This document shows positions 1 through 61,724 of a stretch of 64,000 nucleotides of DNA, piece after piece. The stretch spans positions 6,510,001-6,574,000 of the forward strand of contig CM114271.1 of assembly GCA_050084515.1 (NCBI GenBank). Reading direction: 5' to 3'. Each line of letters starts with the position of its first letter. The stretch's first letter is position 1. Source of the DNA: Blasia pusilla (Eukaryota). The notes under the pieces are model-generated. The model did no database searches. It was not told the origin of the DNA and worked only from the letters and a program-made list of their open reading frames with translations. Made by a program: the position numbers and the translations under genes.

Positions 1-242
1 CTATTGGTCTTCCTTCCTGTATCAACATTCCTCCCTACGCAAAATCACTAGTATTAGTATGCACCTCGAACGGCTTGTTGAACTCCGGCAGCTTCGGTAC
101 TGACTCCTGCGATAGGATCTCTGTGACTCGGTTGAACACATCATTCACTTCTTGGGTCCAAGTTGTGTTAGCATACTTTGCGGTCCAATCTGTAAGAGAT
201 CTCACAATCCCCAAAAATATTCCTCACATAGGTTCGGTAGAA

Positions 243-8000: not shown

Positions 8001-11000
8001 TAGCTGTGAACTTGTTAACTTCTCAAGTTCTCCACTTTGATGTATTCAACCTTGGGAATGAGTGAACTCCTTACCAGTATCCGTTTCATCTCTTCATCTA
8101 GATCTGCTTTGGCTTGCATTTTTAGGCGCTTAAGCTGTGTTCCCACAAATCCTGATTCTATAGGTATACTATCCGGAACAACATGTGAATTCAAGCCCCA
8201 TCGTTTTAGTGCTGTTCGGAGTGGTGCCCCGTAGTATGAAGGGATACTATTGCAGTATCGTTCAATGTCTTGACGCCATTGTGGAAGTGGAAGTGGTGGT
8301 ATCTTGGCTGCACCAGACGATTTTGTCACTTGCTCCAAAAGCTGCCAAAGAACCTGCTCTCCAACAGCCATTCTCACTAATCGGTGTCACTCCATTGAAA
8401 CTTGCCACATCTTCAAACACTTCACAAGATTCAGTTCTACCCTAACTCTTGGACAAGCTCACATATACAACTATTTGCAGGTGATGTATCTAAACACTTT
8501 CCTTCAACAGTCTTAAAAAACCTATTCTTCCGTAGTGTTTTGAATCAGATAGAAAATAATTGGACCACAACGTTAGTATATTTATTGATTATGCCCCAGA
8601 GTTACTGACCGGATAGTTGTAGGGAAGAACAACCAAGGTCAATGTAGTCCCACCACGGTTAAGTCGGAGATACCTGTGTGATGCAGTATTTCAAAATTAA
8701 GTTCCCAGCTGACTATTCTGTGGCTTCACAGAGCTCGAGACCTTTTCTCAACATCTCAGCTCCTACAACTATCATCATACAAGTCTACCTGTCCACTCAT
8801 CACCAGAAGGTCTGGCAAGTATTTCTAGCTTATTTCTTATAACTTATGAAACTCTAGTTGACAAAGACCTGAAAGCATAGACAAGCTAACTTCAAAAAGA
8901 AACTCAAGGAGGGCATACATTCAACATAAAGAACATCTGAGAAACAGGGTGTCACATTATGTACCCACCCAAACGGGTCACCATAGCCATGGCTTGTTCC
9001 TTTACTGTTTTTGACATACACTTGCCAGCAAACTCCTGTGGCTGCCTTGAGGAGAAACCCCATAATTGGATTGGACTCAATCTGAACATATCACAAATCT
9101 GCTTTTAAACCACTGTCAAGGAGGCCAAAGAATCTCTCTGTGATTAAAGACAAACAATCAGCCAAGACAAAAACAGGTTTACTTTCATTAGAAATTTGTC
9201 TTGAGTATCATGAGGAATGGAAAGAAAATCCACGCATGGCACTACTTGCAATAAAATGCAGAGACCAAATCTGATGCAACAGATGTATATTAATGGAAGG
9301 AAAGGCGTGGCAATTGAACTTCCAATACTTTGCCTGGCCTAGTTCATATACAGTGAATGGTCACACAGGCAAATTGACATTACTTACATTTTGAATATTC
9401 CTACATCTAAACATCACAAATATATTTCTGGTCGTCTCCCAAACTGCAACCACAGCTCAGAGAGTAACTATGGGGCCACTTGGAACACAAAATCCTACAG
9501 CCTAGCAGCACAGGACATGTGTCCAAAAAAGAAATTTGGCATGTGCACAATAAACCACCATTACGAGGACTCACATCATATTTATCACATAAAAAGTTGG
9601 CAGGTATAGATGGATCTGCATCCACAGCTTTGTAGGCAATTGTTGGATGGGCTTCTCGTGGAGGGAGAACGGGGTGAGAGGGATCTGGCCAAAATGCCTC
9701 TGGAATAGGCCAGTGACCTTGCTGTGCCTGACCTCCCCTGACATATAGCATCTTCCGCAGGCAAGCTGTTTGGACCTGAAACCACACAGTGATGTGTAGA
9801 ATGAGGGCTCTCATTATTTACTCACTCAACACTTGACCTGGACACTTGCACGAAAAGGGCGGCATAATCGTGTTTCTTTTCCCCTTGGATGAGATTATAT
9901 CCTTGACTATTTTGACACACAAACCTTCCACCAAAACTCACCATGACTTCAGCCCAAACTTTTTCTTCTAGGCTATAAAATAATCAGAGTTACCGATGTT
10001 GATTACCTGAGGTGGAAGATTTTGGGATCCTGGCAGGGGCATGTGCTCAAATGATACAACCACGCAAGGTGGCAATCTTGTGGCCGTGACTTCCGTGTGC
10101 TGCATCAGGACTTTCCAGCTGGTGGCAACAAAGCACTTACCACTGGAAAAGACCACCAGATAATATGACAATATGACAAACCACACCTTGCCTAGAAGGT
10201 GTTTGAAGAGGGCAACTGAGTAGTAGGAAAAGGCAGATTTGCAAATCAGTAGCAGTAGCTTACATGAATGGATACAGAACACCATGTTCAAGTTATGGCC
10301 CAATTTTTTAAGGTTCAAGGCATTTAACTTCAGTATGATACCCCTCTTCTAGCAAGCATCAAAAGGACTTCTTGCTAGAGGAAATATAGCAAAAGAAACG
10401 TTTTCCAGCTGCAGACTGTAGCCTACAGATTCATGGGATGCCTTCCTGGCAATATTAAAGACAAGCAAACCTAGAAACTCCAAAAGGATGGAGATTTACT
10501 TCAACTCTTACCCAGTAAACTCACAGAAGCCTGATATAAGTTTATCCATTTGAACAGCAGTTTGTGAACCAGATATTGGAGCATTCTGGGGAATGGGTCC
10601 GCTCCTTTCTAAAACTGCGGAACTCACTGAAGGTATTCTGGATCAAACCATTTAAAGAAGATTTCATTAATGTAATAAAGACAACGCGTCATTTTACTTG
10701 GTTTTGAGACAAAACAGTGCTCCACTTTAATAGCACAATCACCTAGTATTCTCCAATATGATACAGTGAGCACCGAATCACTAAATCTAAAGTAAGGAGA
10801 GGTTTCATGCCCGTAGTGACCATGGCACCCTTCAAACTTTCAAATCAACCAAAGAGCTTTTGGATGACTCAGATTGTCAAAGCTCTACATAGATGGACTA
10901 AAGATTACTCCTCCTCGGTCCATCTTCCACTGGAATTTTATCAACATGAGTTTCGGGCATCTTCCTAGCAGGAAATGTCAAGGAACACATATGTCAAGAT

Positions 11001-16773: not shown

Positions 16774-17528
16774 CGTTGAAATCAAAATTCTACTTCCTCT
16801 CAGATCTTACTTTTAAAACTTTAAAGGATAGAAAGATAGTAGATCTCGACAGGATCCTCCACTGAACCATGTATATGAGGATAATCATTTACAAACCTAA
16901 AAGAGCAAATATGAAATGGATTCCATGTAGAACTGGTCTACAACTTCAATTGAGAATTGGGTGTTTGAAAAGCAACACCTTACTAGAATACACAAGTCCT
17001 AAAGAGAGGTGGTTGAAACCAAGATGCATGAATTTGTGCTAGATTGGTTCTTGGAGCATTCTCCACACCAATGCACATTCCTTCTTAGTTGATCAAGGCA
17101 CCATCAGAGGCTCAGGTATGTAGGAGCTAATCTCAAAACCCACAGCCTTGGAGGGCAAGAGTAGAAGTGAATCAAAGAAGAAGGGAAGAGAGGGGGAGTT
17201 ATATAGTTTCCTAGAAGAGACCAGCAGAAGGGACCACTACATGGTAAGGCAAGGTGGAAGGGCCAGCACAACAGGAGCAGGCCAACACACCACGAACAGA
17301 CCAACATATTATGAGCAGGACATCACAACATGCCAACACAGTAAGGTTAGGCCAGCACACCATGTGCACAATTAAACATAACCAAAACTCACAAGAATAG
17401 TTAAAGAGGTAACTAGTAAACTCACTGAGACTTGTAACTATGATAAACAACTAACCATAGTTTGCACAACTAACCATAGTTCAAAAACTAGAAGAAAACA
17501 TCAGAAAATTTTATGTGAAATCCTAACA
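16774..17528 (-). mobile_element. Solo LTR, copy 1 (Copia-like TGTTAG...TTCAAC termini)
   Basis: Reverse-complement homolog of 19215-19937; 5-bp TSD ATAAA at 16769-16773 and 17529-17533. Confidence 0.88.
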
Positions 17529-19214: not shown

Positions 19215-19937
19215 TGTTAGGATTTCACATAAAATTGTCTATTGTTTTCTTCCAGTTTTTGAACTATGGTTAGTTCTGCAAACTATGGTTGGAAGTTTAT
19301 CATAGTTACAAGTCTCAATTAGTTTACTAGTTACCTCTTTTAACTATTCTTATGAGTTTTGGTTATGTTTAATTGTGCACATGGTGTGATGGCCTCCCCC
19401 CCTGTGGTCTTTGGCCTATTCTCGGTGTGATGGCTCGCTCATCATCTTTGGCCCTTCCACCTTGCCCATGCAGTGGTCCCTTTTGCTGGTCTTTTCTAGG
19501 AAACTATATAACTCCCCCTCTCTTCCCTTCTTCTTTGATTCACTTCTACTCCTGCCCTCTAAGGCTGTGGGTTTTGAGATTAGCTCCTACAAACCTGAAC
19601 CTCTGATGGTGTCTTGATCAACTAAGAAGGAATGTGCATTGGTGTGGAGAATGCTCCAAGTACCAATCTAGCACAAACTCCTACATCTTGGTTTCAACCA
19701 CCTCTCTTTAGGACTTGTGTATTCTAATAAGGTGTTGCTTTTCAAGCACCCTGTTCTCAATAGAAGTTGTAGACCAGTTCTACATGCAATCCACTTCAAT
19801 TTTGCTCTTTTCAGGTTTGTAAGTGATTACCCTCATGTACATGGTTCAGTGGAAGATCCTGTCGGGATCTACTCTCTTTCTATCATTTTAAGGTTTTAAA
19901 AGTAGATTTGAGAGGAAGTAGAATTCTGATTTCAAAA
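19215..19937 (+). mobile_element. Solo LTR, copy 2 (same family)
   Basis: Starts TGTTAGGATTTCAC and ends GATTTCAAAA (CA mutated); 5-bp TSD ATATG at 19210-19214 and 19938-19942; internal TATATAA. Confidence 0.88.
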
Positions 19938-26200: not shown

Positions 26201-28215
26201 TAAGCCTCCCAGCCTCTTCGAACACACACCATCAAGGCTTGCACACAATTTGGATTGTCTTAATCAAACCACGATGCTCAGTCACAAAAATGTAAAGCCA
26301 ACTTAATATTCATGGAATGGCGGGAAAAACTAACATTCATGCACTATACGCATTGGTGCTCGATCTCTTTTGAATTCTTCTCTACCGATTCTAGCACAAC
26401 TAAGTTCACACACTATTGCAAGTTGTCTTATACATTGCATCCCCTCATTTTTATTGTCAACTTCATTATAGTAAGCTTTGTTCAACTTCTTCTCAACTCC
26501 ATTGGTACATCTCAGCCCATCGGCTTATTTTTTACTTCCTATTTTCGCACTACTCTACTATCACAACTACTTTTAGCTAGACGCATATCTTCACGTATTT
26601 ACATGTTACAGGTTCACTTGCGCTTACGCGATAGTGAATTTTTGGTTCCCACTTTTCACCGCACAACTCGCAACATGTTCACAACTTGGCAACAACTTTT
26701 CGGGGCTGCATTCTTGTTGAGTGTCTCTTCCCCCTCTCTTATTGGAAATTTAAAAATATTTTAAAAAGACCTTTAGAAAATCCTTTCTTTAGTAAAAAAA
26801 TTGTTTTTGTTGATTTTTTTTGAAATTCATGAAGTCCTCTCTTATTGAAAATTTTATACCTTTCTCCTTTCCCATCCCCTATTTTAAATCTATCCCTTAT
26901 TTTTGCTTCCCTTGCCTATTGAAATTTAAATAGCAAAAAATAGATCCACACAAGGAAACATTCTTTTATGAAAATTTGTCACCATCTTTTTCTTCCTCCC
27001 AAGTTTAAAATTACTTGTATCTACTATTTTTTTTAATCACTTGAATGAAATTTAATGTAAATTTTTTATAAAAAATATTATGATTGGATCAATCAAGAAG
27101 ATACATTTCAAGCCTTTTTCTATGTATAAAAAAATGAAACTTGTCCTAGAAGCGCAAACATCCTTATTAGAATAAATGTATCTTTACTTTTCAAAACTTT
27201 CATAGCTTTTCACAAGTCACTCCAGCATGAAAAAAATCTCACAAAGTTCTTAAAAACTAGTGTATCAAGGATAATCCAATTACTTACGTATACAAGATGT
27301 TCCTTACTTATAAATTGTGGTTGCAATCCGTAAAAGAAGAAACAAGGAACCTTTTAATTTTTTTTCAACAAAAACATAAATAATTTGAATTATACTATAT
27401 ATTTGAAGCTTTTCCCATGTTTTAGTTTCCATCATTGTCGCCAAGGCACCAAAGATCCAGATAAATGCACAAGCAAAAATCTTGCAATGGGCTTGGAGTC
27501 GTCCAAACTATAACTAAGGTTGAGGACCAGATAGAACGGCCTAAGAGAAATTCTTTAGATAAAGGGAGGGATGGATTTCTCTAGAATTATATCTAAGGGC
27601 AAAGATCTCCAAGGATATTTTGAACCTAAAATCCACCTAGGAAACCATGTGGGTTGAACCAAAGATACAAGATGGATTAAGAGGTTGCCTTTACGGTTTT
27701 GACGCAATGCAAAGTCCATATAGTTCTTAGATATTAACCTTAGATGTTAACATATGACTCAAATATTGAGTTGTACTTAAGACTTGTTTGAGTTCCCTTG
27801 GGTATTTCCCCTAGACATGTGAGCATCCTTTTAGGTCCCTTAATAATGAATGAAGTTTGTCTCAAGTCTTGAATGACTTACATGTGTGGGAGGGATGAGG
27901 AGTTAAGTCTAGATTTGATTCCTTCGGGATTTGTTGAGCTTGAAGGTTGACTTCACACCTAGACTGAAGAGATGCAAATCTGGTTGACCTAAAATGTATC
28001 ATGTATGAGTGTTTGGATGTAAATTAGTAAGGAGAACATGAAATTGAATGCAAGCTTCCGCGACACACAAGATTGACATTGAAGGAGATAGATGCACAAC
28101 ACATGGTATGAGAGCTAATCCTTGATAAGCGTGGACTCGGGTTATAGGAGGTGATTAGGCGCTTAGGAGATGTCATGGGCATACATATTGCTACACAATA
28201 CATATTGCTGGTCAC

Positions 28216-28582
28216 TGTTATGACCATACGGATTATGTCGTAGAGTATAGTGTGCTAGTAGAGGCCATTCCTTATGTAGGACCGTAGTGGCTTGATAGAG
28301 ATGCGGTTCCATATATAGGGTTGGGGGTTACTCAGTTGGGGGTGAGTCTCACAGAAGGGCCCGCTCTTAGGTTGGAGGATATAAGGTGGAGTGCACTCAA
28401 AGAACAGTCAGTTTTTTGAGTTGAGCCTGTTGCGTTGGGAGTTAGCCTTGGTATGAGTAGAGCTCTTGGCTATGGTGTTTCCCGCAAGCTTCGACCTAGA
28501 TTCTCCCATCGTGGAGTGGGTTTGGCTCGATTGTATGTGATTGTAAACGTGTTTTATGATAGTAGGTCTTTCACGGATTTCA
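28216..28582 (+). repeat. Terminal repeat A1 (367 bp)
   Basis: About 95% identical by eye to 37509-37876; homology stops after GGATTTCA. Confidence 0.95.
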
Positions 28583-30289
28583 CTCAAAGAACTGGAGTAG
28601 ATCGATGGTAGCTTCGATTGTAGATCAGTAGGATCTGGTTAGGGCTGATTGTGTACTCGGCCGTGGATGTTTGCGGCTTGTTGCCTATGTTGGAGGTGTG
28701 AATCAAGTGCGTAGTTGGTTGGGAAAGAAGCGCCTTGCTGAGAGCTTTCCAACGTGCTGTAGATCGCCGGATTTCGTCAAGGGAGTTGGAAGTTATCAAG
28801 CATTGAAGATTCTGGTTCGTGTTCGACAGTTTTCTGATGTGGAGAGCTTGGAGTGCGGAAGCTCTGTTGAAGTTCATCCAGATCGGGTGAGAGGTTCCTA
28901 TTGCTACTTGTATTGTGATCTCATGTGAAGCTATCTGCTCGAGTGCGTGGAGCGTTGCGGATTTCTGCGTGCATGAAATTTGGCGGAAGCGCTGTCGGAT
29001 TTGCGGTTCTAGAGGTGTGTGGACAGCAAGTTTGTCTGATTTTTAGCTCGGAGTACGGAGCTTGGATGTAGCTGAGTTTTGGTGGGGAGATAGCTATGGT
29101 GGTCAATTAAATTCTGATTGAAACAGATTTGATTTCGGTCACGTATTTGTGAAGTAATTTCTGATCGAAATTTCGCGGACTAGCTCAAGGTCTGGCTATG
29201 GTGGACAGCGGATCGGAGGGGTGGTTGGTTGGTCACTCGTTCATTTTTGGAGACGCCTATCCCGTTGGGGGCGCCCTGATTGGACCTCTCTCCATAGCGA
29301 AGCATGGCGAACGGGGCGATAGGGGCATGTCTCGAGCATTTGAGGCTTCGAGGCAACTCGTGGTAGCTCGGGGCGAGTGGGCGTGAGAGGCGGAGTAAGG
29401 AGCAAGGAGCAAGGAGCAAGCAAGCAAGCTTGCTTGCTTGGGCATGAGGCAATTTTTGCAGGATTTGGGATTTGAGTTTTGCATAACTGGTCACCCATCT
29501 TTGGGCTATTCTGCCTGGAGGACGCTTAATAGCTGAGTTCTTAACTATGCCGGTGTCTGCATGTTGTAGCTCATTTGGTCTTTGTTCGGAGATGTGTTAG
29601 GCGCTTTATGCATCTCAGTTTTTGGTTGATGTACCTCTAGCGCATAGTACGGTGTAGCCTCTCCATAGGTGATATTTTCAGGTGTCTTTGCGAGTTCGAC
29701 TAGCACGCGTCATCGACCATGGCGGAGTAGCTATTGCGTTAGAATTGTGTGGTGGGTTTTGTGGATTCAGAGGGCAACACGTTTGGTGGATTGTGTTACC
29801 TTGATTTCCATTTGCGACTGGAGGGTTGTCGTTGGATTTCTTGTGTTTGGATCCCCTCCATCGTGCTTCTTGCTTGCGCGCCCATTGTTAGGGTTGACGC
29901 TGATTTCCATAGTAGTGTTACTCCTGTGTGCTACTGATAGTGAGGCTGGAGTGATGACCAGTAGACCGTGGGAGGCTTCTTGTGGTGATGAGAGGTTAGG
30001 TTGCCTACACCCATAGCTAGTAGAGCTACAATAGTAGAGCGACATCGACGTCACTTGGATAATTTGGTGGTGGTGCGGCATCGGCGTTGGTCATCACGGA
30101 GCTGTCGGGTGGTCTGGTTGGGGACCGTGGTGCGGACAGTGGTGGTTTCACAAGGAGTGGATTTAGGTATCGGCTACCTTTTCCACTTCCGACGGTTGAT
30201 GAAGAGGAGGACGAGGGTGTTCCAAACACCGAGTCTTCTACGTTGTTATCGAGTGTTGCAGCTCCATTGAGTTGGGACATGGACGGTGG

Positions 30290-31470
30290 ATATGGGGCCA
30301 TGAAGGGCCCACGACGATACTGGGTGCAAAGTGGGTACCATTGAGTTGGAGGACTTCATGCGGGAGTTTGATACGTGGTGTGATATGCGGATGTTGCGGA
30401 ACGCACGTTGTTTACACCCTTCTTGGCTTGGAAGGGGTTGTTTCAGCACTTGGAAGGACCACCCATAGATGATTACCATGAGTTTAGGAAGGACCATGTT
30501 GCTGAGATTGAGGCATGGAGACAATATTGGTCTCCAGGCTATGTGTCTATCACCCATGGTGGTATTGGTAGTAGTGCTCCTACTATGCCGGCCCCCCAAC
30601 GCTGAGTGGTATGCAGTCTGAGCCGGAGTGGGGGTACCAAAGTGGAGGTACTAGTGGGGGTACTAGTGGAGGTACTAGTGCCCCACCATCGTTTAGCCTT
30701 GATTCTGAGAGTTCTTCAAGAGGTTGAAGAAGAACTATCAAGGAGTGAAGACGGAGAAGTTGAGGAATCTTAAGAACTTTGAGCGAAAGACTGGTGAGAG
30801 TCTTCGTGAGGCATACACACGTATGTGACGCTTGATTTCAGTTACCCAGGGTGTGATTGAGGATCAGGCAGTCCAGTTTTGGTATGGGATCTTGGACAGA
30901 GATTTGCGCCGTAGGGTACGTGATGCTACTCTTATGAGTGATGATTCACCCACATTGACCCATGTGTTTGCTCTATCTGAGAAGATTGAGCTTAACATGG
31001 TGAAGGAGAGAGTGGTGACATCCGCATTCAGTAGGGATACAACTACTACTTCTCGTGTTCAGCCGCCCACCTCACAGTCTCATAGTAGTGGTGGTGGTAG
31101 TAGTAGTGGGAGTCGTGGGGGGTACACGTGACCTCAGTCAAGTCCTAGAGGGACATTTGTGCAGAGACCATTGCCTTCATTTGCTGCCCAGCAAGCAGGG
31201 CGATCATGTTGGACATGTGGAGGTGATCATGTTAGGAAGTTTTGTCCCCAAGAGGATGGGAGACGGACTTTGGAGGATGGGCCTCGGTCGGCCCCAACTC
31301 GGTGTGATCATTGCGGGAGATTAGGTCATCCTCGAGAGCGTTGCTTTGATCTTCATCCGAGTTGAGATCAGGCCGTGGCCGTGGTGGAGTAGCTCCGAGA
31401 GGCCGAGGTGGTAGAGGTGGTAGGGGTGGTAGAGGTGGACCGGTGGTTGGAGAGCCTACGGTGGCTACCC
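30290..31470 (+). pseudogene. gag remnant with two zinc knuckles and an RGG tract
   Basis: LEDFMREFDTWCD, FERKTGESLREAY, CWTCGGDHVRKFC (~31207), CDHCGRLGHPRERC (~31303), GRGGRGGRGGRGG (~31400-31440). Confidence 0.8.
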
Positions 31471-32194
31471 CTACCACTCGACAAGTCGACTATGGTTGCC
31501 GGGATTGAGCAATTGGAGCGAGTTGGCTACTATGTTTGGTATCCAAAGATAGATCAGTTTGGGAGCAGGGGCTTCCACCTCTTATGGAGGGGATGATCTC
31601 TCTTATATGGCGAGTGCAAAGACAGGTTGAGGCATCAGTGCGATTCGAGAGGAGCCACTCGATCGTCGAGCCACGTGGTGCTCTATCAGAGTTGGACCCC
31701 TGCAGAGGGGTGAGGGGAGGCGAGGCTAGGCTTCCCAATCATTCTTGTTGGTGCTTAGGACTCCATCCATGGTTCCCTCGCAGCCTATTGAGCCGCTTGT
31801 GGGGGACCGAGGCATCTACATCGCGTGTAGTAGACACAGATGCGACATCAATGTAGTATTGCGGATGGCAACTTCGGTGTTGGGATCCCCATTATTTTCG
31901 GCCACGAGGCGATGGCTTTAGGAGTTGACTTAGCTCTGTATTTGATTAGTAGCCACGTTGTGAACGTGGGGTGTTTCTTGCTACACGTGTTGAGGTGGAT
32001 GAGGGTGTTGCGGTGGAGCGACCCTCTATGTCGAGTAGCATTGAGTACAAGTGCTACTTAGCGGCAAAGCGGGCGAAGATGGATGCATTACCGGCCCGGC
32101 CACCATTGATCGTGAGAGGCTTACACTGGTGTATGTATGTTGGACAACCGGAGTGGGATCTTCCGATTGGTGAGTCCCGGGGCAGTGTATAGAC

Positions 32195-32530
32195 CGGATA
32201 GAGTCTTGTTAGACTCGGTGCCCAACCTTGATGTTGGGAAAGGCGGCATGTATTGGTTTGGGTATTCGGAGGTCAGAGCTTGAGCCTTGCCCATTCCAGA
32301 TTCAAACATCACTTGGAGGAGCCAATGATAGGTCTCAATTCATGACACGGGAAAAGTTTTATGTACAATTGAGACCAGATCATGCGACTGATAGCTCTCG
32401 GTTGGGAGTATCTGCGGTAGTCACATCAGCCGAGTCGTATGATGTACTAGTTGGAGGAGCAGTATTGTACCCGATGGGTTTTCAGATGGATTCTTTGGTG
32501 AGACAAAGATCTTATAGACCAGGTTGGCAG
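32195..32530 (+). pseudogene. Aspartic protease remnant
   Basis: RVLLDS(G)AQPLMLGK across a frameshift at ~32218; YDVLVGGAVL closing motif. Confidence 0.7.
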
Positions 32531-32929
32531 TCCGGGGATGGACGTATGAGCCAAGTTCCTGTGAGATTTATTTCTGGGGCTCGACCAGGAGGGTCTTCCC
32601 CAAGAGTGTTAGCATCTGTGGCTGGTTTTAGTGGAGTAGTCACTTGGCCAGGAGACTTTTTGGAGGGTAATGTTTCTGCTATGGATTCTCCTGCCCATGA
32701 GGAGGTAGAGGAGGTCCCTATTTTTGCAGCAAATGGCATCCTCATCGTTGGATGTGCCACTTTGAGTTCAGCGGTGCACTACGGCAGAGGCGATTGCCTA
32801 GTGCAGAGGCTTGGTGTGAGGTGTTATACCTCACGAGGAAGAGGAGGCCCCACGGCGGACTCCTACTTCTGGCCTAGTTGGGTTATCCCCTTTGGATACT
32901 ACACCCATTGTATGGCAGTATCCGCCGGA

Positions 32930-33885
32930 GGGCATTTGTGTGTTAGATCTCTTTGGTGGGATTAGCACTGGTTTGGCTGCAGTGTTGCAGGCCGGTATTC
33001 TTGTGCGGAGATACGTGTATGTGGAGCGAGATGAGACGGCCCAGAGAGTCTCATCCCGACATATTGGTCAGTTGATGCGGAGATATCCTGAGTTGTTGCC
33101 GCCATCAGCTATTCGTGGGTACTAGCGTGCTTTACCATCACACATTGCATTGTTGGGGGCGCAGGACCTTGAGAGAATTGGTCCTATGGATTTGGTGATT
33201 GCTGGATGGCCATGTCAGGGTCATACACGTGCTGGTCGTGGTGAGGGATTACATGACCCTAGGTCTCGATTTTTTTGGGAGATGTTACGGGTGTTACGAC
33301 ATCTTCACGTTCATCGCACACGTGCTCTAGCTTAGCTTATTCGAGAATGTTCCATTGTTGGGTGACACTCGGACCCGGATGATGGCGAGTGTTCATGAGG
33401 TGCGGTCTTGATTGGACCAGCGGTGTTGTTGGATGCAGCATGAGTTGGCTCAGCGTGCACATCGCCCACGCTTGTGGTGGACAAACTTGTTGCCTAGGGA
33501 GGTTCTACGTCGAGCATATGATGCAGTGCAGCGGGATCCTCGCCTTACAGTGGATAGTATCTTGGATATTGGGTGACTTTCTCAAGTGGTGAGGGTTATT
33601 GATCGATCACCCATGGCAGCTGTGAACCATGTGGGCCAGCCTAGGATGGCGCTACCCACATTTGTGAGTTTTCCTCGTCACATGCCCTCTGAGGAAGGTG
33701 GTCGGGGCTTGTATGGGATTCTCATGTGCGGCGGTTGGTGGAGCCTAACGCTGATGAGAGAGAGAGAGCGTGCGATGGGATTTGCTACTGGTGTGACAGC
33801 GGTTGCTTCTATTTCTGAGGCTTCACGACGTCATGTGTTGGGTCAGGCCATGGACCTGAATTGTTTGACTTGGATTTTGAGTCTT
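32930..33885 (+). pseudogene. DNMT3-like DNA (cytosine-5) methyltransferase domain inside pol
   Basis: Motif I VLDLFGGI (~32940-32963), II YVYVE, IV DLVIAGWPCQ (catalytic Cys ~33213), V GLHDPRSRFFWE, VI LFENV (~33337-33351), VIII LLDAA..AHRPRLWWTNL (~33457), IX ERERAMGF..GVT, X SRRHVLGQAMDL. Unpermuted I-X order; stops and frameshifts present. Confidence 0.93.
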
Positions 33886-34239
33886 GGTATGGCCGAGCAG
33901 CGTCGACTTCGGACTATGTCTGTGGGTCTTCCACGCCTTGTAATGAGCTCGATGGCTAGGGGACAGTAGAGGCATCGGTCGGGGTGAGGAGAGTAGTATT
34001 TTGCATCCTTGGAGTAAATGGGATGTAATGGCTGGGCATGTGGAGTTGGTTGCTCATGCTAGTGGAGGAGTTATTTGCTCAGATGATGGTGTAGCTAAGG
34101 GTGTACCATCTTGTGAGGGGGTTGCGTAGCAGCCAATGGCATCGTCCTCTCCCTCTAGTGTGCCAGTGGAGGAGACTTGGGAGCCATTACTTGGGCCCAA
34201 GCTACGGCGGTGAGAAACGACGCTGACAAAGTTCCTACG

Positions 34240-35590
34240 TGCTTATAGGATTTGTTTTGCCTTTAGCATGAAGGAGTTGGGTTCTCTGGTTGGACCCGAT
34301 ATCTGATTGATTTGGCTAGTGATACGCCAATCTTCCGTCGTCCCCTACCGATATAGTGATATGGAGAGGGACTTGATTGAGTAGGACGTTGGACCTTTTG
34401 GAGGCTGGATTAGTGGAGTTGTCGCATGGAGAGTATGCATCGCCCACTTTGTCATGCTGCTAAAAAGGATATGCATGGCAACTACACGGATAGGCGGATG
34501 TGTGGAGATTACCGCCCTATCAATCGGAAAACCAAGGTCGATAGGTATGCCATGCCTACACCGAGGAGATCTTTGATGTGGTGGGACAGCAAAGATTTTC
34601 AGATTTTTGGATCTCGGCAGATACCATCAATTGCCGATTCGGGAGAGTGACAAGGCCAAGACAAAGATTAAGGGTGTCAACTCTTATGGCAAGGATTGTT
34701 TGTACCGGTGGAAATTCTTACCCTTTGGGTTGAAGAATGCACTGCCGAGTTTCAAAGAGTGATGATGGACAGGATCCTAGCGGGGTTGGATTTTGTTCGG
34801 TGTTACATTGATGATATCTTGGTGTTGATAACACGGTGGAGGAGCATCGATACATTTGCAGATGGTGTTTGAGCGGTTGAAAGCTCATGGTCTACGTTGC
34901 ATCCGAGGAAAGTGTAAGTTCTTCCATGAGGATGTTGAGTACTTGGGTCATGTGATCTATCCAGGTGGTTTGGGAGTTCGACAAGCAAAGGTGGAGGCTA
35001 TTGCACTTATTCGCGTCCGGTAGATGTGAGTAGAGTTCGAGCATTCATGGGATTGGCAAACTACTATTGGAGGTATGTGAAGGGATTTAGTGCTATGGCA
35101 AAGCCTTTGAACCAATTGCTGAAATCAGATCAAGAGTGGCACTTTGGGAGATGATCGGAGAGAGCTTTTGTGGAGCTTAAGGGCAGTTGGTGGCGGCGCC
35201 TATCTTGAGGAGACCTATCGAGGGCGCCCATTTCAGTTACACACTGATTGGAGTAGGTTGGGACTTGGAGCGGTGTTGACACAACATGATGATGAGCACA
35301 TGGAGTTTGTGGTGGCCTATGCAAGTCGTTCGAATAATGCAGCGGAGTCGCGCTATAGTTCATATGAGGAAGAGTGCTTGGCAGTAGTGTGGGCTGTGGC
35401 ACACTTTAGGTGTTACTTGTTTGGCACATTTACCCTTTTCATCGATCACCACCGCTCAAGTGGTTGATGGAGTCGGACAAGCTTACAGGGAAGCTTGCAC
35501 GGTGGGCTCTTATCTTACAGGAGTATGACTTCCATGTGGTACATAGACCTGGAGTTGCCAACCTTGATGCTGATGGGTTGAGTAGGAACC
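34240..35590 (+). pseudogene. Reverse transcriptase and RNase H
   Basis: RRMCGDYRPINRKT..DRYAMPTP, LPFGLKNA, CYIDDILV (34801-34824), [77 protein letters not shown]. Confidence 0.95.
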
Positions 35591-35979
35591 CATATACTAG
35601 CCAAGAGGATACAACTGGGGCTAGATGGCATGGCGAGGTTGATGAGGAGATGGTGCCAGGTTGGCATGCATCCGCCTTTTTATGTTGGTTAGGGGTGGAC
35701 TCTAGTATGGAGGACCACATGATATCTTACTCTAGTCAGAGGGTAGATGGCCAGCCTTCAGATCCTAAGGTTGGAGATGGTGGTACGGATCAGCGTGATA
35801 TTCATGATGATGCGTTGGTGTTGGAGTTCCTACGGACCAGTAGGGTGCCAGGCATAGTGAGTGCCAAGGAGCGAGACCGTGTTCTTCAACGTGCTAAGAG
35901 GTATCGATTGGAGGGAACACATATTCTCCGCGTGTGGGAGGATGGTAGAGTACGAGTAGTGCCACATTTGGCTCAGAGA

Positions 35980-37010
35980 GAGCGCATTGTGCGACATGCC
36001 CATGAGGAGTTGGGACATTTTGGGGTAAAGCGTACGTATAGCTTACTCCTTGGCCAATATTGGTGGCGTGGCATGCATACTCAGGTGCAGCAATTGGTGT
36101 CACGTTGTATGGTTTGTGACCAGGTAAGGGCATCATTTAATGCCCCTACACCACAATTACACCCCTTGCCTATTATGGGGTTGGGTTACCGTTGGAGTGT
36201 GGACTTTGCGGTACCGTTACCGTTGACTGTACGACATCATCGATATGTGTTGGTGATGGTGGAGCACTTCTCCAAGTGGATTGAGTTGGTGGCATTACCG
36301 GACAAGGCAAGTGAGGGAACGGCGTATGCGTTTCTGGATAGAGTGCTTAGTCATTTTGGTGCACCCGGTGAAGTCTTGACCGACCAGTCTGAGTTTTGGT
36401 GAGTTTGGTCTTGTGTGACAAGGCGTTGATTGATCATCGGACCACGTCTCGAGATCATCTTGAGGCGGATGGTTTGGTGGCGTGTGGTTCAGACGGTGAA
36501 GAGGGCATTGCGCAAGTATGGCCTCTGAAGGGCATCTTGGAGATTGGGATATTCGGTTGCCATGGTTAGCCATGGGGGTATAGGTTGATCGCCAAGCATC
36601 CTTGGCTTCCTTCTCACCTTATTTTTTACATTATCGGCCGAGATCCGGACTTGCCGAAAGCAATTGTCGGGAGTCTAGTGAGGTGGTGAACCTTGATGAC
36701 CGAGAGATGTGGATGAGGGTGTGTTCTCAACGGGCGGAGCTCTTTCGGAGAGTTATGCCAACAGCCTTTGAGAATCTTGCCATTGCTCAACACAGGGATA
36801 CGTTGCGGTATGCAACCATTCGGGGTGGAGGTTATCGACCATCGATTCGTAGGTTCCATGTGGGGGACTATGTCTATTTGCAGCAGATTGCCCCGACAAC
36901 GTTGGATGTGACGGCAGGCCACACTATTTTACGAGTGCGTGAGATGTTAGCTTTTGGAGTTCTCATGTTGGAGGGTCGTGATGGAGTTTTTTGGAAGGAC
37001 CATGTGCGTA
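35980..37010 (+). pseudogene. DDE integrase
   Basis: HHCC zinc finger (AHEELGHFG..YWWRGM..CMVC), WSVDFA, VEHFSKW, FGAPGEVLTDQ, RVVQTVKRAL, FSPYFL, FHVGDYVYL. Confidence 0.93.
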
Positions 37011-37084
37011 ATTGTGCGCCATGTCATCTTCCAAATGTGGATGGTACTGTTGACCCAAGCTTAGCCATGATACGTGCTAGCTTG

Positions 37085-37227
37085 AGGTGCATGTTGTGTG
37101 GGTCTCATGGTAACGCGGCCGTATGTTGGTGTGTGATCGGTGTTCTAGGGGTTGGCACATGATGTGTTTGACTCCACGTTTGGATGTTGTTCCTACTGGA
37201 AGGTGGATTTGTCCTCGATGTACTTAG
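37085..37227 (+). other. C-terminal PHD finger of the pol polyprotein
   Basis: RCMLCGSHGNAA/(frameshift)MLVCDRCSRGWHMMCLTPRLDVVPTGRWICPRCT-stop gives C4-H-C3 spacing with the typical W-x-C-P-x-C end. Confidence 0.9.
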
Positions 37228-37400
37228 GAGAGGTAGATGACTTGATCTTTGCATGATATGGATTACAAATGTGCGACTAACGATGGGGCAACCTAGCACC
37301 CGGCCTTCTGATTCGGGCACCCAAGAAGGTGTATAGCATGTAGTAGATGTATAGGGCTACCTGGGAGTTAGAGGGACCTAACCGCCTTGATTAGGGGCGA

Positions 37401-37982
37401 GTTGTGGTACACTTGCGTTTGTGGATACTCTCGTCTTTGTTATGTACGTATGTGAGTATGGTATGTCAGCGATGTATGGTGTATGACGATGTGGATTCGC
37501 ACGACAGCTGTCATGACCATACGGATTATGTCGTAGAGTATAGTGTGCTAGTAGAGGCCATTCCTTATGTAGGACCGTAGTGGCTTGGTAGAGATGCGGT
37601 TCCATACATAGGGTTGGGGGTTACTCAGTTGGGGTGAGTTTCACAAAGAGGGCCCGCTCTTAGGTTGGAGGATATAAGGTGGAGTGCACTCAAAGAACGA
37701 TCGATTCTTTGAGTTGAGCCTGTTGCGTTGGGAGTTAGCCTTGGTAGTGAGTAGAGCTCTTGGCTATGGTGTTTCCCGCAAGCTTCGACCTAGATTCTCC
37801 CATCGTGGAGTGGGTTTGGCTCGATTGTATGTGATTGTAAATGTGTTTTATGACAGTAGGTCTTTCACGGATTTCAGTTGTGGTACACTTGCATTTGTGG
37901 ATACTCTCGTCTATGTTATGTACGTATGTGAGTATGGTATGTCAGCGATGTATGTTGTATGACGATGTGGATTTGCACGACA
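37401..37982 (+). repeat. 3' split-repeat block B1(37401-37506)-gc-A2(37509-37876)-B2(37877-37982)
   Basis: B1 and B2 are 106-bp near-identical copies (GTTGTGGTACACTTGC...GCACGACA); A2 matches A1. Confidence 0.95.
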
Positions 37983-38943
37983 TCACATCCACACCACACC
38001 ACACAACACCGATCTTCCCGAACGCACGGGTAAATCCACACATATAAAAAAATGAACTCATGCATGTACGTCGAGATCACACAACAAAAGTAAACGGGAC
38101 ACTCGGCCTAAAACTCCACTCCTCAATCTACATTGGCATATTGAGCCTCGTCCACCCTATGCTATCAGGGAATCCGGACCCTAGCATCCTGATCCTATCT
38201 TACACAAGAACAAGAGAGGTGCTCCAACAACCCAACATGAGAGCAATGGCTCAGGAAAGCCATCCCTCTCCCATACATAGGTGTGGGAAGAGCCAAAATG
38301 CCCTTCCCCTAAAAATAGCAATCCTCCTAGAAACCTACGTGCACAGGTATGAGGGGCGGGTGACCTATTGAACAAGTCATCCGGATGTGAAAGACCCAAA
38401 CAAAAATTTCGTTAGAAACGATGATCGTGACACAACGGAACTATCCTCAACCCCATCCAACACCTCAAGACGAAGTTACACTCAAGACAGTCCACTGACT
38501 CTCTATGTCGTCGTCGCGATAGATCCCTACATATCGGCTACTCAGATGTGATAGAGAACACAAGGTTGTAATTGAGGTTTGGACACTCGGGGAGGGATGC
38601 AGGCGACAAATAAATAATTTAAACAAGCCAAGGCTTGAAGATGACACCATTGGATGGATCTTCACCAAAACGTCGAGTCCAATGCCAGAAACCAAGAGAG
38701 AAACCACTACCTAACTAGGAGCCAAAGAATTATACTTTAATATCCAACACACAATTTTTAGGCATGAGAATGTTATATATTTGAGAAATTCAAGCAAGCT
38801 TTCAACGCTAAATTCAAATGATCTGGGGCTCTATCTTGAAATGAAGGATCTCATGAATATCATGTGAGAATAAATGACCCAAAAAAATAAGTGAATGGTT
38901 GAGTTGGAGATGGATTGGGCATCCATTTCTATCAAGAAACTAA

Positions 38944-53939: not shown

Positions 53940-55290
53940 TCAAAATAGCCGCCGAGATGGAAACTCGATCCAGAAATGATGATTATTGTCGCAATAGGCG
54001 CCACCATAATCGAAATAGCCGCCGTTGTAGATTATTCGTTTTCTGAGAGGTGATCCTACTCAGAATAGCCGGGAAAATATCCGCCGTTGAAGTGATTTTG
54101 ATTTCCTGAGATGTAAGCCTCCTCACAGTATAGCCGCCGAATTAGCTGCCGTGGTAGTTTTGTAGTTATCCTGAGAGGGTCGCCTTCCCAAAATAGCCTC
54201 CGAATTAGCCGCCGTTGTAGTATTATTGTTGTCTTGAGAGTTGAGCCTAGTCATAAGAGTGGTCGACTTAGCCGCATTTGTAATTGATTTCCTTTCTTAA
54301 GAGCTTAGCCTATTGAGAATAACCACCGAGATAGCCGCCGTTGTTGTTGTTTTGTTGTCATGAGAGGCGAGCCAACTCAGAATAGCCTCCAAATTAGCCG
54401 CCGTTGTAGTTTTTTTGTTCTCTTCAGAGGTGAGCCAACTCAGAATAGCCGCCAAATTACCCGCCGTTGTAGTTGTTTTGATCTTTTCAGAGGTGAGCTA
54501 ACTCAGATTTGTCGCCGAATTAGCCGCCGTTGTAGTTGTTTTGTTGTCTTCAGAGGTGAGCTAACTCAGAATAGTCACCGAATTAGCCACCGTTGTAGAT
54601 GTCTAACTTTCCCTAGAGGTGAGCCAACTCAGAATAGCCGCCGAATTAGCCGCCCTTGTAGTTGTTTTGGTTTCGGGAGAGATTGGGCTTCTCAGAATAA
54701 CCATCCAAATAGCCGCCGTTGTTGTCATTTTGTTTTCATGAGAGGCAAGCCAACTCAGAATAGCCACCAAATTAGCCGCCGTTGTAATTGTTCTTTTTCT
54801 CCTCAGAGGTGAGCTAACTCAGATTTGTCGCCGAATTAGCCGCCGTTGTAGTTGTTTTGTTCTCTTCAGAGGTGAGCTAACTCTGAATAGTCACTGAATT
54901 AGCCACCGTTGTAGATGTCTAACTTTCACTAGAGGTGAGCCAACTCAGAATAGCCGCCGAATTAGCCGTCATTGTAGGTGGTTTGGGTTTTGGGAGATAT
55001 TGGGCTATATCGACTAGCCTCCGAAATAGCCGCCGTTGTAGTAATTTTTTTCTCTTCAAAGGTGAGGCTACTTAGAGTATCCTCCGTTGTAGTTTTTGTA
55101 CTCGATAGATGAGCCTACTCAAAGCGGCGGTTGCCGTTGCGAGAAGAGGTGATAGTACTCGAGAATAGCCGCCTAAATAGCGACCATTGCGGTTGTTTTG
55201 TACTCGAAAAGGTCACCTACTACGAATAGCCGCCGTTGCAGTTGTCTTGTACTTCTCAGAGGTTAGCCTACTCACAGTAGCCGCCGTAGT
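53940..55290 (+). repeat. Tandem array, 63-bp unit with ~315-bp higher-order repeat
   Basis: Unit GAGGTGAGCCAACTCAGAATAGCCGCCGAATTAGCCGCCGTTGTAGTTGTTTTG..; variant GATTTGTCGCCG recurs 315 bp apart; decays toward both edges. Confidence 0.9.
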
Positions 55291-58391: not shown

Positions 58392-59059
58392 GCTTTACTC
58401 AGGAGTGGAAAGTTTATATTCCCAAGAGACTAGAGCAGATACTACTGAAGAACTTAATGTAAAGGGTAGTGTTGTATCAGGGGGAAATTTGGTGCAGTCT
58501 ACCATGGAGAATGTTTCCACTCCTATGGATCTTGGTAATAGCGCTTCTAATCGCATACCAAATAGTCTAGTATTTCCGAGTGTTTCTCTTGTTTATGGGA
58601 AGTCTGAATCGATGAAGAGTCGATGGTCGTGAGGAGCAAAAAATCTTGGCATATCCTTGGTAGAACTTGATACTGATTCCCAGTGGAATCCAGAGGAAGA
58701 AGCATTTCATATTAGCTTGGCAGAAGAAGCTGCGAAAGATTTTCAGATTGTAGAAAGAAATCTATAAACTCAGATGGAATTGTCATATGTAGCCCATTTT
58801 TTTCTTGGTGTGAAAAATTATGATATTTGTTCATGTTGGAATGCAAAATATGTTCTCAGTGACGTAATAAAGTTCACAAACCATAATGGACCAAACCCTT
58901 CCCGGTTCAAGAAGAAACAGGCTTGGAGTGACGCCTATTCTCCATGACTGCTAATCACACGCCGAGAACTAAATCACCAAACGTTATACCTCGCTCTTTC
59001 TGAGGCTTTTGTTTGTTTAACTCCCTTCCCTCCCTCTCCTACCTTCTCCACTCAAGCCC

Positions 59060-59700
59060 GACGGCTATTGTCGGGACGGCTGCTATTTCCGGGCTGGCGG
59101 CTACTCTCGGGACGGCGGCTATTGTCGGGCCGGCAGCTATGTTCTAGGCGGCTGGCTCTTCTCTGGACGGCTGCTAATCACAGTCCGACGGCTAATCTCT
59201 GGACGGCGGCTAATCACAGGCCGGCGGATATTGTTGGCACGACGGCTACTTTCTAGGCGGCTGCTATACACAGGCCGGCGGCTATGTTGTAGGCGGCTGG
59301 CTCTTCTCGACGGCATTTGCTAATCTAATCCGGAGGCTAATCGACGGGCGGATATTGCTTTGGGACGGCGGCTAATCTCGGACGGGCGGCTAATCACAGG
59401 CGGATATTATTTGGCACGGGCGGCTACTTTCTAGGCGGCTGCTATACACAGGCCGGCGGCTATGTTCTAGGCGGCTGGCTCTTCTCTGGACGGCGGATAT
59501 TGCTGGGACGGCGGCTATTTTCTAGGCGGCTGCTATACACAGGCCGGCGACTATGTTCTAGGCGGCTGGCTCTTCTCTGGACGGCGGCTATTCACAGGCC
59601 CGACGGCTATTGTCTGGACGGCTGCTAATCACAGTCCGGCGGCTATTCTCTGGACGGCGGCTAAGGGAGTTAGGCGGGCCTCAGGACGGCTGCTAATCAC
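59060..59700 (+). repeat. Tandem array of GGCGGCTA-containing ~20-bp units
   Basis: Recurrent GGACGGCGGCTA / TTCTAGGCGGCTG / CACAGGCCGGCGGCTA. Confidence 0.9.
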
Positions 59701-59749: not shown

Positions 59750-60097
59750 TGTCATGAACATACGGATTATGTCGTAGAGTATAGTGTGCTAGTAGAGGCC
59801 ATTCCTTATGTAGGACCGTAGTGGCTTGGTAGAGATGCGGTTTTATACATAGGGTTGGGGGTTACTCAGGTGGGGGTGACTTTCCTAGTAGGGCCCGCTC
59901 TTTGAGTTGAGCCTTGGCTATGGTGTTTCCCGCAAGCTTTGACCTAGATTCTCCCATCGTGGAGTGGGTTTGGCGCGATTGTATGTGATTCTATACGTGT
60001 TTGTGGTGTTTGTGGATACTCTCATCTATGTTATGTAGGTATGTGAGTATGGTATGTCAGCCATGTATGTTGTATGACGATGTGGATTCGCACGACA
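59750..60097 (+). mobile_element. Solo A+B terminal repeat of the DNMT-Gypsy family, with internal deletions
   Basis: Starts TGTCATGAACATACGGATTATGTCG and ends GATTCGCACGACA; colinear with 37509-37982; flanks CCTT / CCTC (4-bp TSD, one mismatch). Confidence 0.9.
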
Positions 60098-61045
60098 CCT
60101 CCCTTCATGTTTCCTCCTTTCCCTCCTTTATTTTTCCCTCCCCTTCATTAATTTTTCCCTCCCCTTCCTTATTTTTCCTCCCTCTTCTTCAATTTTTTTC
60201 CTCTCCTCCCTTCATGTTTCATGCATTCCCTGCTTTATTTTTCCCTCTCCTTCCTTATTTTTCTTCCCTCTTCTTCAATTTTCTTCCTCTCCTCCCTTCA
60301 TGTTTTCTCCATTCCCTCCTTTATTTTTCCCTCCCCTTCCTTTTTTTTGCTCCCTCTTCTTCAACTTTTTTCCTCTCCTCCATTCCTTCACTTTTCTTAA
60401 CCCCTTCATGTTTTCTCCATTCCCTCCTTTATTTTTCCCTCCCCTTCCTTTTTCTTGCTCCCTCTTCTTCAACTTTTTTCTTCTCCTCCATTCCTTCACT
60501 TTTCTTAACCCCTTCATGTTTTCTCCATTCCCTCCTTTATTTTTCCCTCCCCTTCCTTGTTTTTCCTCCGTCTTCAATATCTTTTTTCCTCTCCTCCCTT
60601 CATTTCTCTTCCATTCCTAGTTTTTCCTCCCTCTTCTTCAACTTTTTCCCTCTCTCTTCAGTATCTTTTTTCCTCTCCTCCCTTCATTTCTCTTCCATTC
60701 CCTCCCCTTCATTTATTTTTCCCTCCCCTTCCTTATTTTTTCTCCCTCTTCTTCAATTTTCTTCCTCTCCTCCCTTCATGTTTCCTGCATTCCCTGCTTT
60801 ATTTTTCCCTCCCCTTCCTTTTTTTTGCTCCCTCTTCTTCAACTTTTTTCCTCTCCTCCCTTCATTTCTCTTCCATTCCTAGTATTTCCTCCCTCTTCTT
60901 AACCCCTTCATGTATTCTCCCCCCCCCGTCTCCTTCATTTCTTTCCCTCTCCTTCCTCAATTTTCTCCTCCCTCCCCACCCTAGTTTTTCCACCCTCTTC
61001 TCCCTTTTTTTTCCTCTCTTTTCAGATAGCTTCATCCCCTTCCTC
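60098..61045. repeat. Polypyrimidine (CT-rich) minisatellite, also 59701-59749
   Basis: Almost purely C/T on the plus strand, with recurring CCCTTCATGTTTTCTCCATTCCCTCCTTTATTTTTCCC units (~110-bp period). Confidence 0.9.
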
Positions 61046-61724
61046 TCAAAATATAGCCGCTGGTACAGAAGTGCGGCTAAGGGAGTTAGGCCGGCCTGCG
61101 GCTACGGTCTTGTGAGAAGGAGTCAAGCCGCTGCGGCTATTCTCAGACGGATGTAAGGAGTGAAGCACACTGCGGCTATAGTGCGTACTAGGGGACAGGC
61201 TAGCGTCTAGGTATGTAAATCGACCTTGGATATTGAATAGAAACCTAGAATGCATGCGCGCGAGTGGTGGACGGGCAAGCAGGGCTAGGACGTGAGGCCA
61301 ATTTTCAGATTCAACGTTGAGATTTCAATTATTAGGTCAATTTTCAGATTTCACATTTCAGATTTGAGGGTGATGAAGGTCGAATGTGCTCTTGGGCCGC
61401 TTGCGATTGCAGAGCGGAAGCGGCTACTGTGCGGATTGGGGATGAGCTTTTCGGCTGATTGCGAATGTAGAGGGACGGCTATCCTCTTGGGCGGATTGCG
61501 ATTGTGGAGCTTTGGCGGCTAATGTGTGGATTTCGGACACTAGGGTCTCAAGTGCAGCCCGCGGCAGGTTTGAGGTCAAATTTATGCCATTTGAAGTGAA
61601 ATGCCGAGCTTGGGGTTTCAGTGATTTCTCCTTTAGGTCAATTTGAAGCAATATGGTGTGGCAGATTTACCTTGGTTTTGCGGGTTTGGACGCAGGCGGG
61701 TAGATGCCTTGTTAGTAATACGCA

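Follow-up and report, generated by a model that had tools for sequence, protein, structure and literature searches.

Reverse-transcription signals and integrase ends occupy different registers in a split-repeat Ty3/gypsy retrotransposon of Blasia pusilla

Introduction

KnitGypsy-Dnmt3, a retrotransposon of the alga Klebsormidium nitens, encodes a Gypsy polyprotein with a DNA methyltransferase (DNMT) in pol (de Mendoza et al. 2018, PMC5890265). The legend to Fig. 4c of that paper describes "DIRS-like repeats, Gypsy domains" in an order 'same as that of a DIRS retrotransposon', and the passages covered here hold no analysis of termini, target duplications, polypurine tract (PPT), primer-binding site (PBS) or palindrome. 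The name KnitGypsy was found in no other publication of the collection searched, and a literature search of article main texts found no published analysis of termini, duplications, priming sites or palindrome for such Gypsy elements. Here we describe an element of this kind at positions 28216–37982 of a 64,000-nucleotide stretch of Blasia pusilla DNA (assembly GCA_050084515.1, contig CM114271.1, positions 6,510,001 to 6,574,000, forward strand), which we call the window. As far as KnitGypsy-Dnmt3 is described, the two share a C5-DNMT inside a Gypsy polyprotein and the repeat order A-coding-B-A-B; they differ in that KnitGypsy-Dnmt3 has an algal host, whereas the best named matches of the window element are from liverworts (Calypogeia fissa, 82%, and Marchantia). 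Gypsy domains together with split repeats are already in print, but only as a remark on one alga, and the window element is a new bryophyte member. The main new point is that its reverse-transcription signals and its integrase ends occupy different registers.

The repeat order of the window element is also that of PAT, Ngaro and TOC1, which are arranged A1-internal-B1-A2-B2 with an internal B1-A2 joint equal to the joint that their two termini would form. As described, however, integration of those elements relies on a tyrosine recombinase and produces no target duplication (PMC8969392), whereas the window element has a DDE integrase, 4-bp duplications and TG...CA termini. In its priming signals it resembles Tf1/Sushi and the plant Tcn1 and TAR lineages, for the last two of which self-priming has been described (Neumann et al. 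2019, PMC6317226): there is no tRNA-type primer site, and the start of the RNA is complementary to a site following U5, a complement which is found in relatives of the window element and has decayed in the window copy. In the published descriptions those lineages have ordinary long terminal repeats (LTRs), and the integrases of Tf1/Sushi and Tcn1 bear a chromodomain, whereas the clade of the window element bears a PHD finger.

Retroviruses provide a third comparison. HIV-1 integrase reportedly cleaves the palindromic junction of two-LTR circles. The integrase of prototype foamy virus (PFV) cuts such a junction and yields processed linear DNA (Delelis 2005, PMC1180852). The likeness lies in an integrase cutting an internal palindrome of two ends, a cleavage that for the window element is proposed from its anatomy. 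The difference is one of place and standing: in these accounts the retroviral palindrome is the U5,U3 joint itself and the route is accessory or debated, whereas the palindrome of the window element lies inside the predicted U3 and is carried in every integrated copy, the U5,U3 joint being elsewhere (A2,B2).

Results

The element is bracketed by the 4-bp target-site duplication TCAC, at 28212–28215 and again directly after B2 at 37983–37986. Between the two duplications, read on the + strand, it consists of A1 (28216–28582, 367 nt), an 8.8-kb internal part, B1 (37400/1–37506), a GC spacer (37507–37508), A2 (37509–37876) and B2 (37876/7–37982), as obtained by repeat finding, BLAST and direct reading. 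A reads TGTTATG...GATTTCA, with the integrase-type terminus TGTTATG at the left end of A1, and B1 ends with the integrase-type terminus CACGACA. This split-repeat layout is far beyond chance, and it confirms the preliminary description of the locus, in which A1...B1-GC-A2-B2 had been recognized between TCAC duplications.

Raw reads from a same-species run were mapped to the window. Beyond 37982, 556 reads enter unrelated sequence (agreement 0.34), and 41 reads connect 28215 with 37996 through four other letters; the latter appear to be empty sites, from flanking-repeat copies without the element. Because reads leave for unrelated flanks past 37982 and empty-site reads are present, A1...B2 is one inserted unit. 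When 1/100 of the run was sampled the pile-up was ~1000 deep, and the family is therefore a very high-copy one; read differences are mostly C>T and G>A. A1 and A2 are 95.9% identical and B1 and B2 96.3%, which makes the window copy old, and all of its reading frames are broken. The locus is best explained as an old, dead copy of a high-copy Ty3/gypsy retrotransposon.

We scanned metagenome contigs with an integrase alignment and obtained 232 relatives. The best 80 loci were retained, and A, B and both internal borders were mapped on each of them. The complete order A-int-B-NN-A-B (int, internal part) is present in four further copies (L006, L007, L019 and L041); L004, L008, L042 and L046 represent these insertions again in other assemblies, and L024 is cut inside A2. 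The 3' block int-PPT-B-NN-A-B occurs in nine independent insertions of family 1, namely the window copy (W), L006, L007, L017, L019, L033, L040, L041 and L061. Family 2 (L043=L049, L066=L068 and L079, integrase 52–57% identical to that of the window) and family 3 (L081, 61% identical) share this block, and the full layout rests on these three families only. L081 came from a scan of prokaryote-labelled assemblies; contigs L081–L087, from cyanobacterial, Mollicutes, Halanaerobiaceae, Minisyncoccia and Halorubrum metagenome-assembled genomes, code for members of this eukaryotic retrotransposon clade and are probably eukaryotic contamination of bins. L031, L064, L069, L075 and L080, whose contigs are short or circular-like collapses, have no B repeat downstream of the palindrome described below.

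Related copies end in TGTCATG...CACGACA, again of TG...CA type. Taking the A-int-B-NN-A-B form together with a shorter form, A-int-B, perfect 4-bp duplications flank eight of nine insertions: W (TCAC), L006 (TCTC), L007 (AAGG), L019 (AATC) and L041 (CATA) among the complete copies, and L002 (TACA), L018 (TGTG) and L035 (TGTT) in the A-int-B form, the ninth being L015 with an imperfect GGTA/AGTA. Layout and duplications, which the preliminary description knew from the window copy, thus recur.

These counts bear on the possibility that we are dealing with an ordinary Gypsy element whose LTRs are A+B (or B-GC-A), and that the window copy is a one-off that arose by rearrangement, by an accident of circle integration or by misassembly. 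A+B does have TG...CA ends that form an inverted repeat of 7 bp, and the family also has a solo A-B unit at 59750–60097 (+ strand, BLAST), with three internal deletions, one of them across the A,B border. It sits between two blocks of diverged tandem repeats, in CT-rich low-complexity surroundings, and its flanks, CCTT and CCTC, match at 3 of 4 positions. However, a solo A-B is derivable from the observed layout by A1 x A2 recombination. Copies with two complete A+B LTRs were looked for, and a canonical 5' end, with B after A or B-NN before A, was found at none of 11 independent 5' ends (W, L002, L005, L006, L007, L015, L018, L019, L024, L035 and L041; L029, which is rearranged, and L011, with a partial B, were dropped from the count). 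Neither the window copy nor the four further complete copies have two identical complete LTRs at their ends. The same layout in these four copies, which have their own duplications and were independently assembled, and the 3' block in three families also speak against an accident at one locus, and we regard an ordinary Gypsy element as very improbable.

The reverse-transcription register was read from the priming signals. In the preliminary description, A2 was preceded by B1 instead of a PPT. The first part stands, in that B1 and not a polypurine run adjoins A2, but a PPT does exist: by direct reading the tract TTAGGGGCGA (37391–37400, + strand) abuts B1. Of 13 copies, 12 have a G-rich polypurine tract abutting the start of B1, as TTAGGGGCGA in the window and as TAGGGGGGCGA in most others. 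Because the tract precedes B1, the reverse-transcription repeat is B-GC-A and not A. Only in the B-GC-A register do the two signals flank the repeats properly, with the PPT before B1 and the primer site after A1. U3 would consist of B plus the first half of A, and R/U5 of the rest of A; B1 would be the first part of U3, and A1 would supply the promoter part of U3 plus R/U5.

The integrase register is set by the bases that abut the target duplications: TGTCATG where A starts and CACGACA where B ends, which are inverted repeats of each other over 7 bp. Both recur within the element, 2 bases apart, where the end of B1 joins the start of A2, and there they form the 16-bp palindrome CACGACA-GC-TGTCATG (37500–37515, + strand), a putative integrase attachment site. 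The cDNA ends predicted from PPT and PBS (GTTGTGG... and ...TTTTCA) are no inverted repeat of each other. The palindrome is kept with 0–3 mismatches across families whose integrases are 37–82% identical to that of the window (L031, L034, L061, L064, L069, L075, L080, L081–83 and L087); its spacer is most often GC, from which the variants AT, AC and GT differ by transitions. Cuts between CA and GC on both strands of the palindrome would give a normal 3'-processed integrase substrate with 2-nt 5' overhangs.

The absence of a tRNA-type primer site directly after A1, asserted in the preliminary description, is borne out by direct reading, which finds CTCAAAGAACTGGAG there. The eleven nucleotides CTCAAAGAACT (28583–28593, + strand), directly after A1, are a putative self-priming PBS. 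This primer site follows A in all 13 family-1 A-to-internal junction rows, in some with 1–2 substitutions; CTCAAAGAAC(T) comes straight after A at all family-1 5' junctions and is not a tRNA complement. A TATA-like box, TATAAGG, is found in A1 by direct reading (28380–28386, + strand), is conserved as GTATAAAG in related copies and is a likely promoter. A complement of the primer site inside A begins 26–33 nt downstream of this box. An RNA started at the usual TATA distance, the spacing by which we placed the RNA start, would therefore carry at its 5' end the complement of the bases that directly follow U5.

We compared the length of the exact complement with the number of shuffles that attained it. 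In family 1 the complement is 16 nt in L007 (0/2000 shuffles) and 10 nt in L019 (12/2000). In family 2, against the post-A sequence of the sister subfamily, it is 13 nt in L043 (0/1000) and 11 nt in L066 (5/1000). Family 3 gave 16 nt in L031 (0/300) and, by eye and with no shuffle figure, 12 nt directly after the A end in L082; the distant L075 and L080 gave 19 nt (0/300) and 11 nt (7/300). The complements are unrelated in sequence between families, which amounts to co-variation. Priming is probably tRNA-independent, as the preliminary description had suggested, and of the Tf1-like self-priming type, with complements of 10–19 nt in related copies and a sequence specific to each family.

A second copy of the primer site just 5' of the complement gives a hairpin X-loop-X' at the predicted transcription start. 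In A1 of the window it spans 28396–28420 (+ strand; CTCAAAGAAC agtca GTTTTTTGAG), where X' (GTTTTTTGAG) is a decayed complement of the primer site at the predicted RNA start. The hairpin is present in families 1, 2 and 3 and in L080 (e.g. L081 at about 2592–2618), conserved in position and different in sequence.

At the A2,B2 joint, the predicted U5 end stands exactly against the U3 start. The A,B joint is without an added or lost base in nine of ten family-1 copies, the exception being L006, with 20 extra bases (10838–10857); the last three, CGA, are those with which the polypurine tract ends. The 20-base insert of L006 also partly duplicates the end of A. A four-state subfamily hexamer at positions 12–17 of B is in the same state in B1 and B2 of one element in 9/9 rows (8 independent elements), and further subfamily variants are also common to B1 and B2. 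Since B1 and B2 co-vary, every cycle must make both B copies from one template, as expected if B2 is the stretch that opens U3 in the left repeat of the cDNA and has been transferred to the right-hand end. Two B-GC-A repeats and the internal part, circularly permuted and opened at the palindrome on the primer-site side, would give the integrated element.

L030 (3358–3880) departs from this layout. It reads int-PPT-B-GC-A2, followed by the sequence of the primer site and by the first half of A in inverted orientation, back to the A start, where the insertion ends ...GGTCATGACA. Its 5' end lies off the contig. The structure fits a plus strand that ended in a copy of the self-primer, snapped back on the complement in R and was extended, and it fits an integrase that accepts the A-start sequence as a right-hand terminus.

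The joint and L030 also bear on a DIRS/PAT-style bridging scheme that dispenses with a circle. There the RNA would run from A1 into B2, a linear cDNA would be completed at both ends via B1-GC-A2, and integrase would trim both overshoots at the palindromes. The layout is that of the tyrosine-recombinase split-repeat elements, for which such models are described as standard (PMC8969392). Bridging yields A-int-B-GC-A-B, A-int-B and solo A-B and never A-B-GC-A-int-B, which are the forms seen, and L030 uses the internal palindrome position as its right end. By standard strand-transfer reasoning, however, a minus strand primed after A1 never copies the RNA tail past A2, and B2 would be absent from the cDNA. 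Moreover, B1 and B2 share variants from B position 12 on in all nine rows, so that an RNA-inherited B2 could be at most ~11 nt, barring gene conversion. We consider bridging unlikely.

How securely the forms can be counted depends on assembly. A de Bruijn graph admits both A-int-B-GC-A-B and A-B-GC-A-int-B as paths as long as A1 and A2 have not diverged, and because of this ambiguity only W, L006, L007, L019 and L041, in which A1/A2 identity is 86–96%, are counted as reliably resolved. Two contigs have ends that overlap at 100% identity, L080 (1–123 = 9049–9171) and L082 (1–127 = 9159–9285), and look like circular units of 9048 bp and 9158 bp with the content int-PPT-B-GC-A-PBS-int. They are most simply assembler collapse of the repeat; formally they also match a one-repeat circle.

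The coding content is that of a Ty3/gypsy element. Window open reading frames (ORFs) on the + strand matched Pfam Integrase_H2C2 plus rve, and RT_RNaseH, which agrees with the DDE integrase of Gypsy type named in the preliminary description. The window's own DNMT, gag and reverse transcriptase (RT) fragments gave no Pfam match, and the remaining domains were placed by tblastn with ORFs of the intact relative L031. All lie on the + strand. A gag-like region at 30712–31359 is decayed, with broken frames; its CCHC zinc knuckles were seen by eye and its match to L031 ORF1 is weak (21.6% identity, E 1e-4). An aspartic protease region at 32228–32581 matches L031 ORF1 residues 721–837 (E 2e-20), where Asp_protease_2 is found. 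A C5 cytosine DNMT occupies 32904–33903 in two frames (L031 ORF1 residues 929–1260, E 6e-38 and 2e-33), and at these residues L031 ORF1 carries Pfam DNA_methylase (C5 DNMT, PF00145). RT and RNase H follow at 34097–35452 (tblastn; Pfam RT_RNaseH at 35123–35467), then the DDE integrase, with H2C2 zinc finger and rve core, at 35452–37123 (Pfam and tblastn), and at its C-terminus a PHD finger at 37123–37221 (tblastn to L031 ORF2 residues 1002–1034). By Pfam and tblastn this is the Ty3/gypsy pol order, protease-RT-RNase H-integrase, with a DDE (rve) integrase.

The intact relatives L031, L080 and L072 encode RVT_1, RT_RNaseH, Integrase_H2C2, rve and PHD, and L031 also protease and DNMT. The Pfam PHD domain of these three relatives stands at the integrase C-terminus, and no chromodomain is found there. 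The best solved structure for L031 is Ty3 Gag-Pol (7q5b, E 4e-98). Calypogeia fissa and Marchantia, both liverworts, supply the best named protein relatives of the integrase ORF, followed by Sphagnum, Klebsormidium and Closterium, and many of the matches list PF00145 (DNMT) and PF00628 (PHD). Those from Klebsormidium are 39–47% identical, one of them (P0036, 45%) with PF00145. The window element and KnitGypsy-Dnmt3 may belong to one ancient green-lineage clade, marked by an integrase PHD finger and often a C5-DNMT, whose common descent is putative.

A tyrosine-recombinase element of the DIRS/PAT/Ngaro kind that merely carries a Gypsy-like RT would likewise have split direct repeats A1...B1-A2-B2 and could have a methyltransferase domain. 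However, the five long ORFs of the intact relatives gave no Pfam match to Phage_integrase (tyrosine recombinase), whereas rve and Integrase_H2C2 do match; the methyltransferase belongs to the C5 DNMTs (PF00145) and is not Dam-like; and perfect 4-bp duplications surround eight of the nine insertions. We judge this origin extremely improbable.

Other features of the window were recorded. The element (28216–37982) shows strand asymmetry, with a GC skew of +0.26 and an AT skew of -0.15, against about -0.13 to +0.08 in the flanks; the skew is also present in L007, L019 and L041 (+0.22 to +0.26) and not in the distant L080 and L072, and is a family trait. At the window edge, 8–944 (- strand) holds an RT-RNase H fragment of another Gypsy-like element (tblastn 28–33% to L031 ORF2). 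An inverted repeat of ~750 bp, 87% identical, lies at 16776–17528 and 19215–19935 with its arms ~1.7 kb apart, and may be a foldback or terminal-inverted-repeat element. Self-BLAST ladders reveal diverged tandem repeats in blocks at 54009–55121, 59059–59664, 60098–61045 and 61694–62522.

Discussion

What this analysis adds to the preliminary description is that the anatomy has two registers, that the attachment palindrome is conserved, that there is a self-priming signal and that B2 is copied anew in each cycle. The copies themselves display the anatomy, its recurrence and duplications, the positions and co-variation of the priming signals and the re-copied B2, and from these we propose, with moderate confidence, that integrase opens an end-joined cDNA, circular or in tandem-repeat form, at the internal palindrome. 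The TATA box in A would drive an RNA starting ~26–33 nt downstream, whose first 10–19 nt would pair with the site right after A1 in Tf1-type self-priming, the 3' part of A acting as R/U5. The polypurine tract would prime the plus strand at the first base of B1, and reverse transcription would treat B-GC-A as a long terminal repeat (LTR'). The U5 end of the cDNA would then be joined to the U3 start, in a two-LTR' circle or as tandem LTR', which would create the A,B joint. Integrase would not use the cDNA ends; it would cut the palindrome of the LTR' that adjoins the primer site, between CA and NN on each strand, and insertion of the processed ends with a 4-bp stagger would give A-PBS-coding-PPT-B-GC-A-B. 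The circle, which the preliminary description had also put forward as a possibility, is suggested because an exact U5,U3 joint is found at A2,B2 together with an internal palindromic attachment site. We also considered schemes in which homology-based template switching, from an RNA that ends in A2, creates the A,B joint, and rejected them, since none puts B after A without an existing A,B template.

Several points weigh against this model. The RNA ends, the joined intermediate and the cleavage of the palindrome are inferred from anatomy. A two-LTR' circle has two identical palindromes, and a cut at the other would give A-B-GC-A-int-B, a form seen at none of the 11 independent 5' ends; among reliably resolved complete copies it stands at 0 vs 5 for the observed form, which disfavours a random choice of palindrome (about 1/32). 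At 13 independent loci A2-B2 is missing and int-B runs straight into the flank; four of these loci (L002, L015, L018 and L035) are complete and have duplications. In family 2 the likeness of L055 and L070 extends ~745 bp upstream from the A homology, which would put the element boundary in L055/56 and L070/67 at that distance. In the window copy the complement has decayed to 6 nt (A1) and 9 nt (A2) and is not significant alone (1356/2000 shuffles), and no significant complement was found in L079 (7 nt), in L055 against its own A (8 nt, 217/2000 shuffles), in L064 or in L069.

Some of these points admit more than one explanation. The A-int-B form may be a B1 x B2 recombinant, a direct integration product or a short-read collapse of the B repeat, and because the last may apply, form counts from metagenome contigs are soft. 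The absent permutation possibly reflects a preference arising from strand discontinuities, faster collapse by recombination of the close A copies, or a different intermediate.

One such intermediate is a linear cDNA. On this route integrase would cut the palindrome of the left LTR' only and insert the A start of the body together with the B end of the released 109-bp piece, and host repair would join the two free cDNA ends to A,B after integration. A single palindrome cut suffices, and the route explains the exact U5,U3 abutment, the re-copied B2 and junction inserts like that of L006. However, it has no known precedent and is as symmetric as the circle, a right-palindrome cut giving the unseen A-B-GC-A-int-B, and end joining would be expected to be less exact than nine clean junctions in ten. 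We find the linear route quite improbable. Returning to the joined-cDNA model, a wider form of it is that the whole ancient green-lineage Ty3/gypsy clade obligatorily passes through a U5-U3-joined cDNA which is re-opened at an internal palindrome. We offer this extension tentatively, as something short of an even chance.

LTR retrotransposons are taught and annotated as elements in which the reverse-transcription repeats and the integrase ends coincide. This is not so here, and the displaced registers hold in a putative clade that spans algae to liverworts and reaches very high copy number. If the joined-cDNA route is right, there is a consequence for annotation: LTR finders would call A alone as the LTR, mis-date the insertions and miss B and the true 3' end.

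The question is tractable, as the related elements L031, L080 and L072 appear intact in public data. PHD-bearing Gypsy elements are present in Chlamydomonas as well, REM1 being one. Another, Gypsy-7a_cRei, is active in laboratory strains (Craig et al. 2022, PMC9940879), and its legend speaks of 'LTR subparts' and of a left LTR without the last 8 bp of the right one. As described there, it resembles the window element in having a PHD finger next to the integrase, and, the window copy being dead, it may offer a laboratory handle on the split-repeat question.

If the joined-cDNA route is true, these elements would be a natural system for an integrase acting on an internal palindrome and a possible evolutionary link to the tyrosine-recombinase split-repeat elements. 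If the clade-wide reading is also true, the scheme in which a circle junction is the precursor of integration would be a normal life cycle, and the clade would form a functional bridge between LTR retrotransposons and DIRS/PAT elements.

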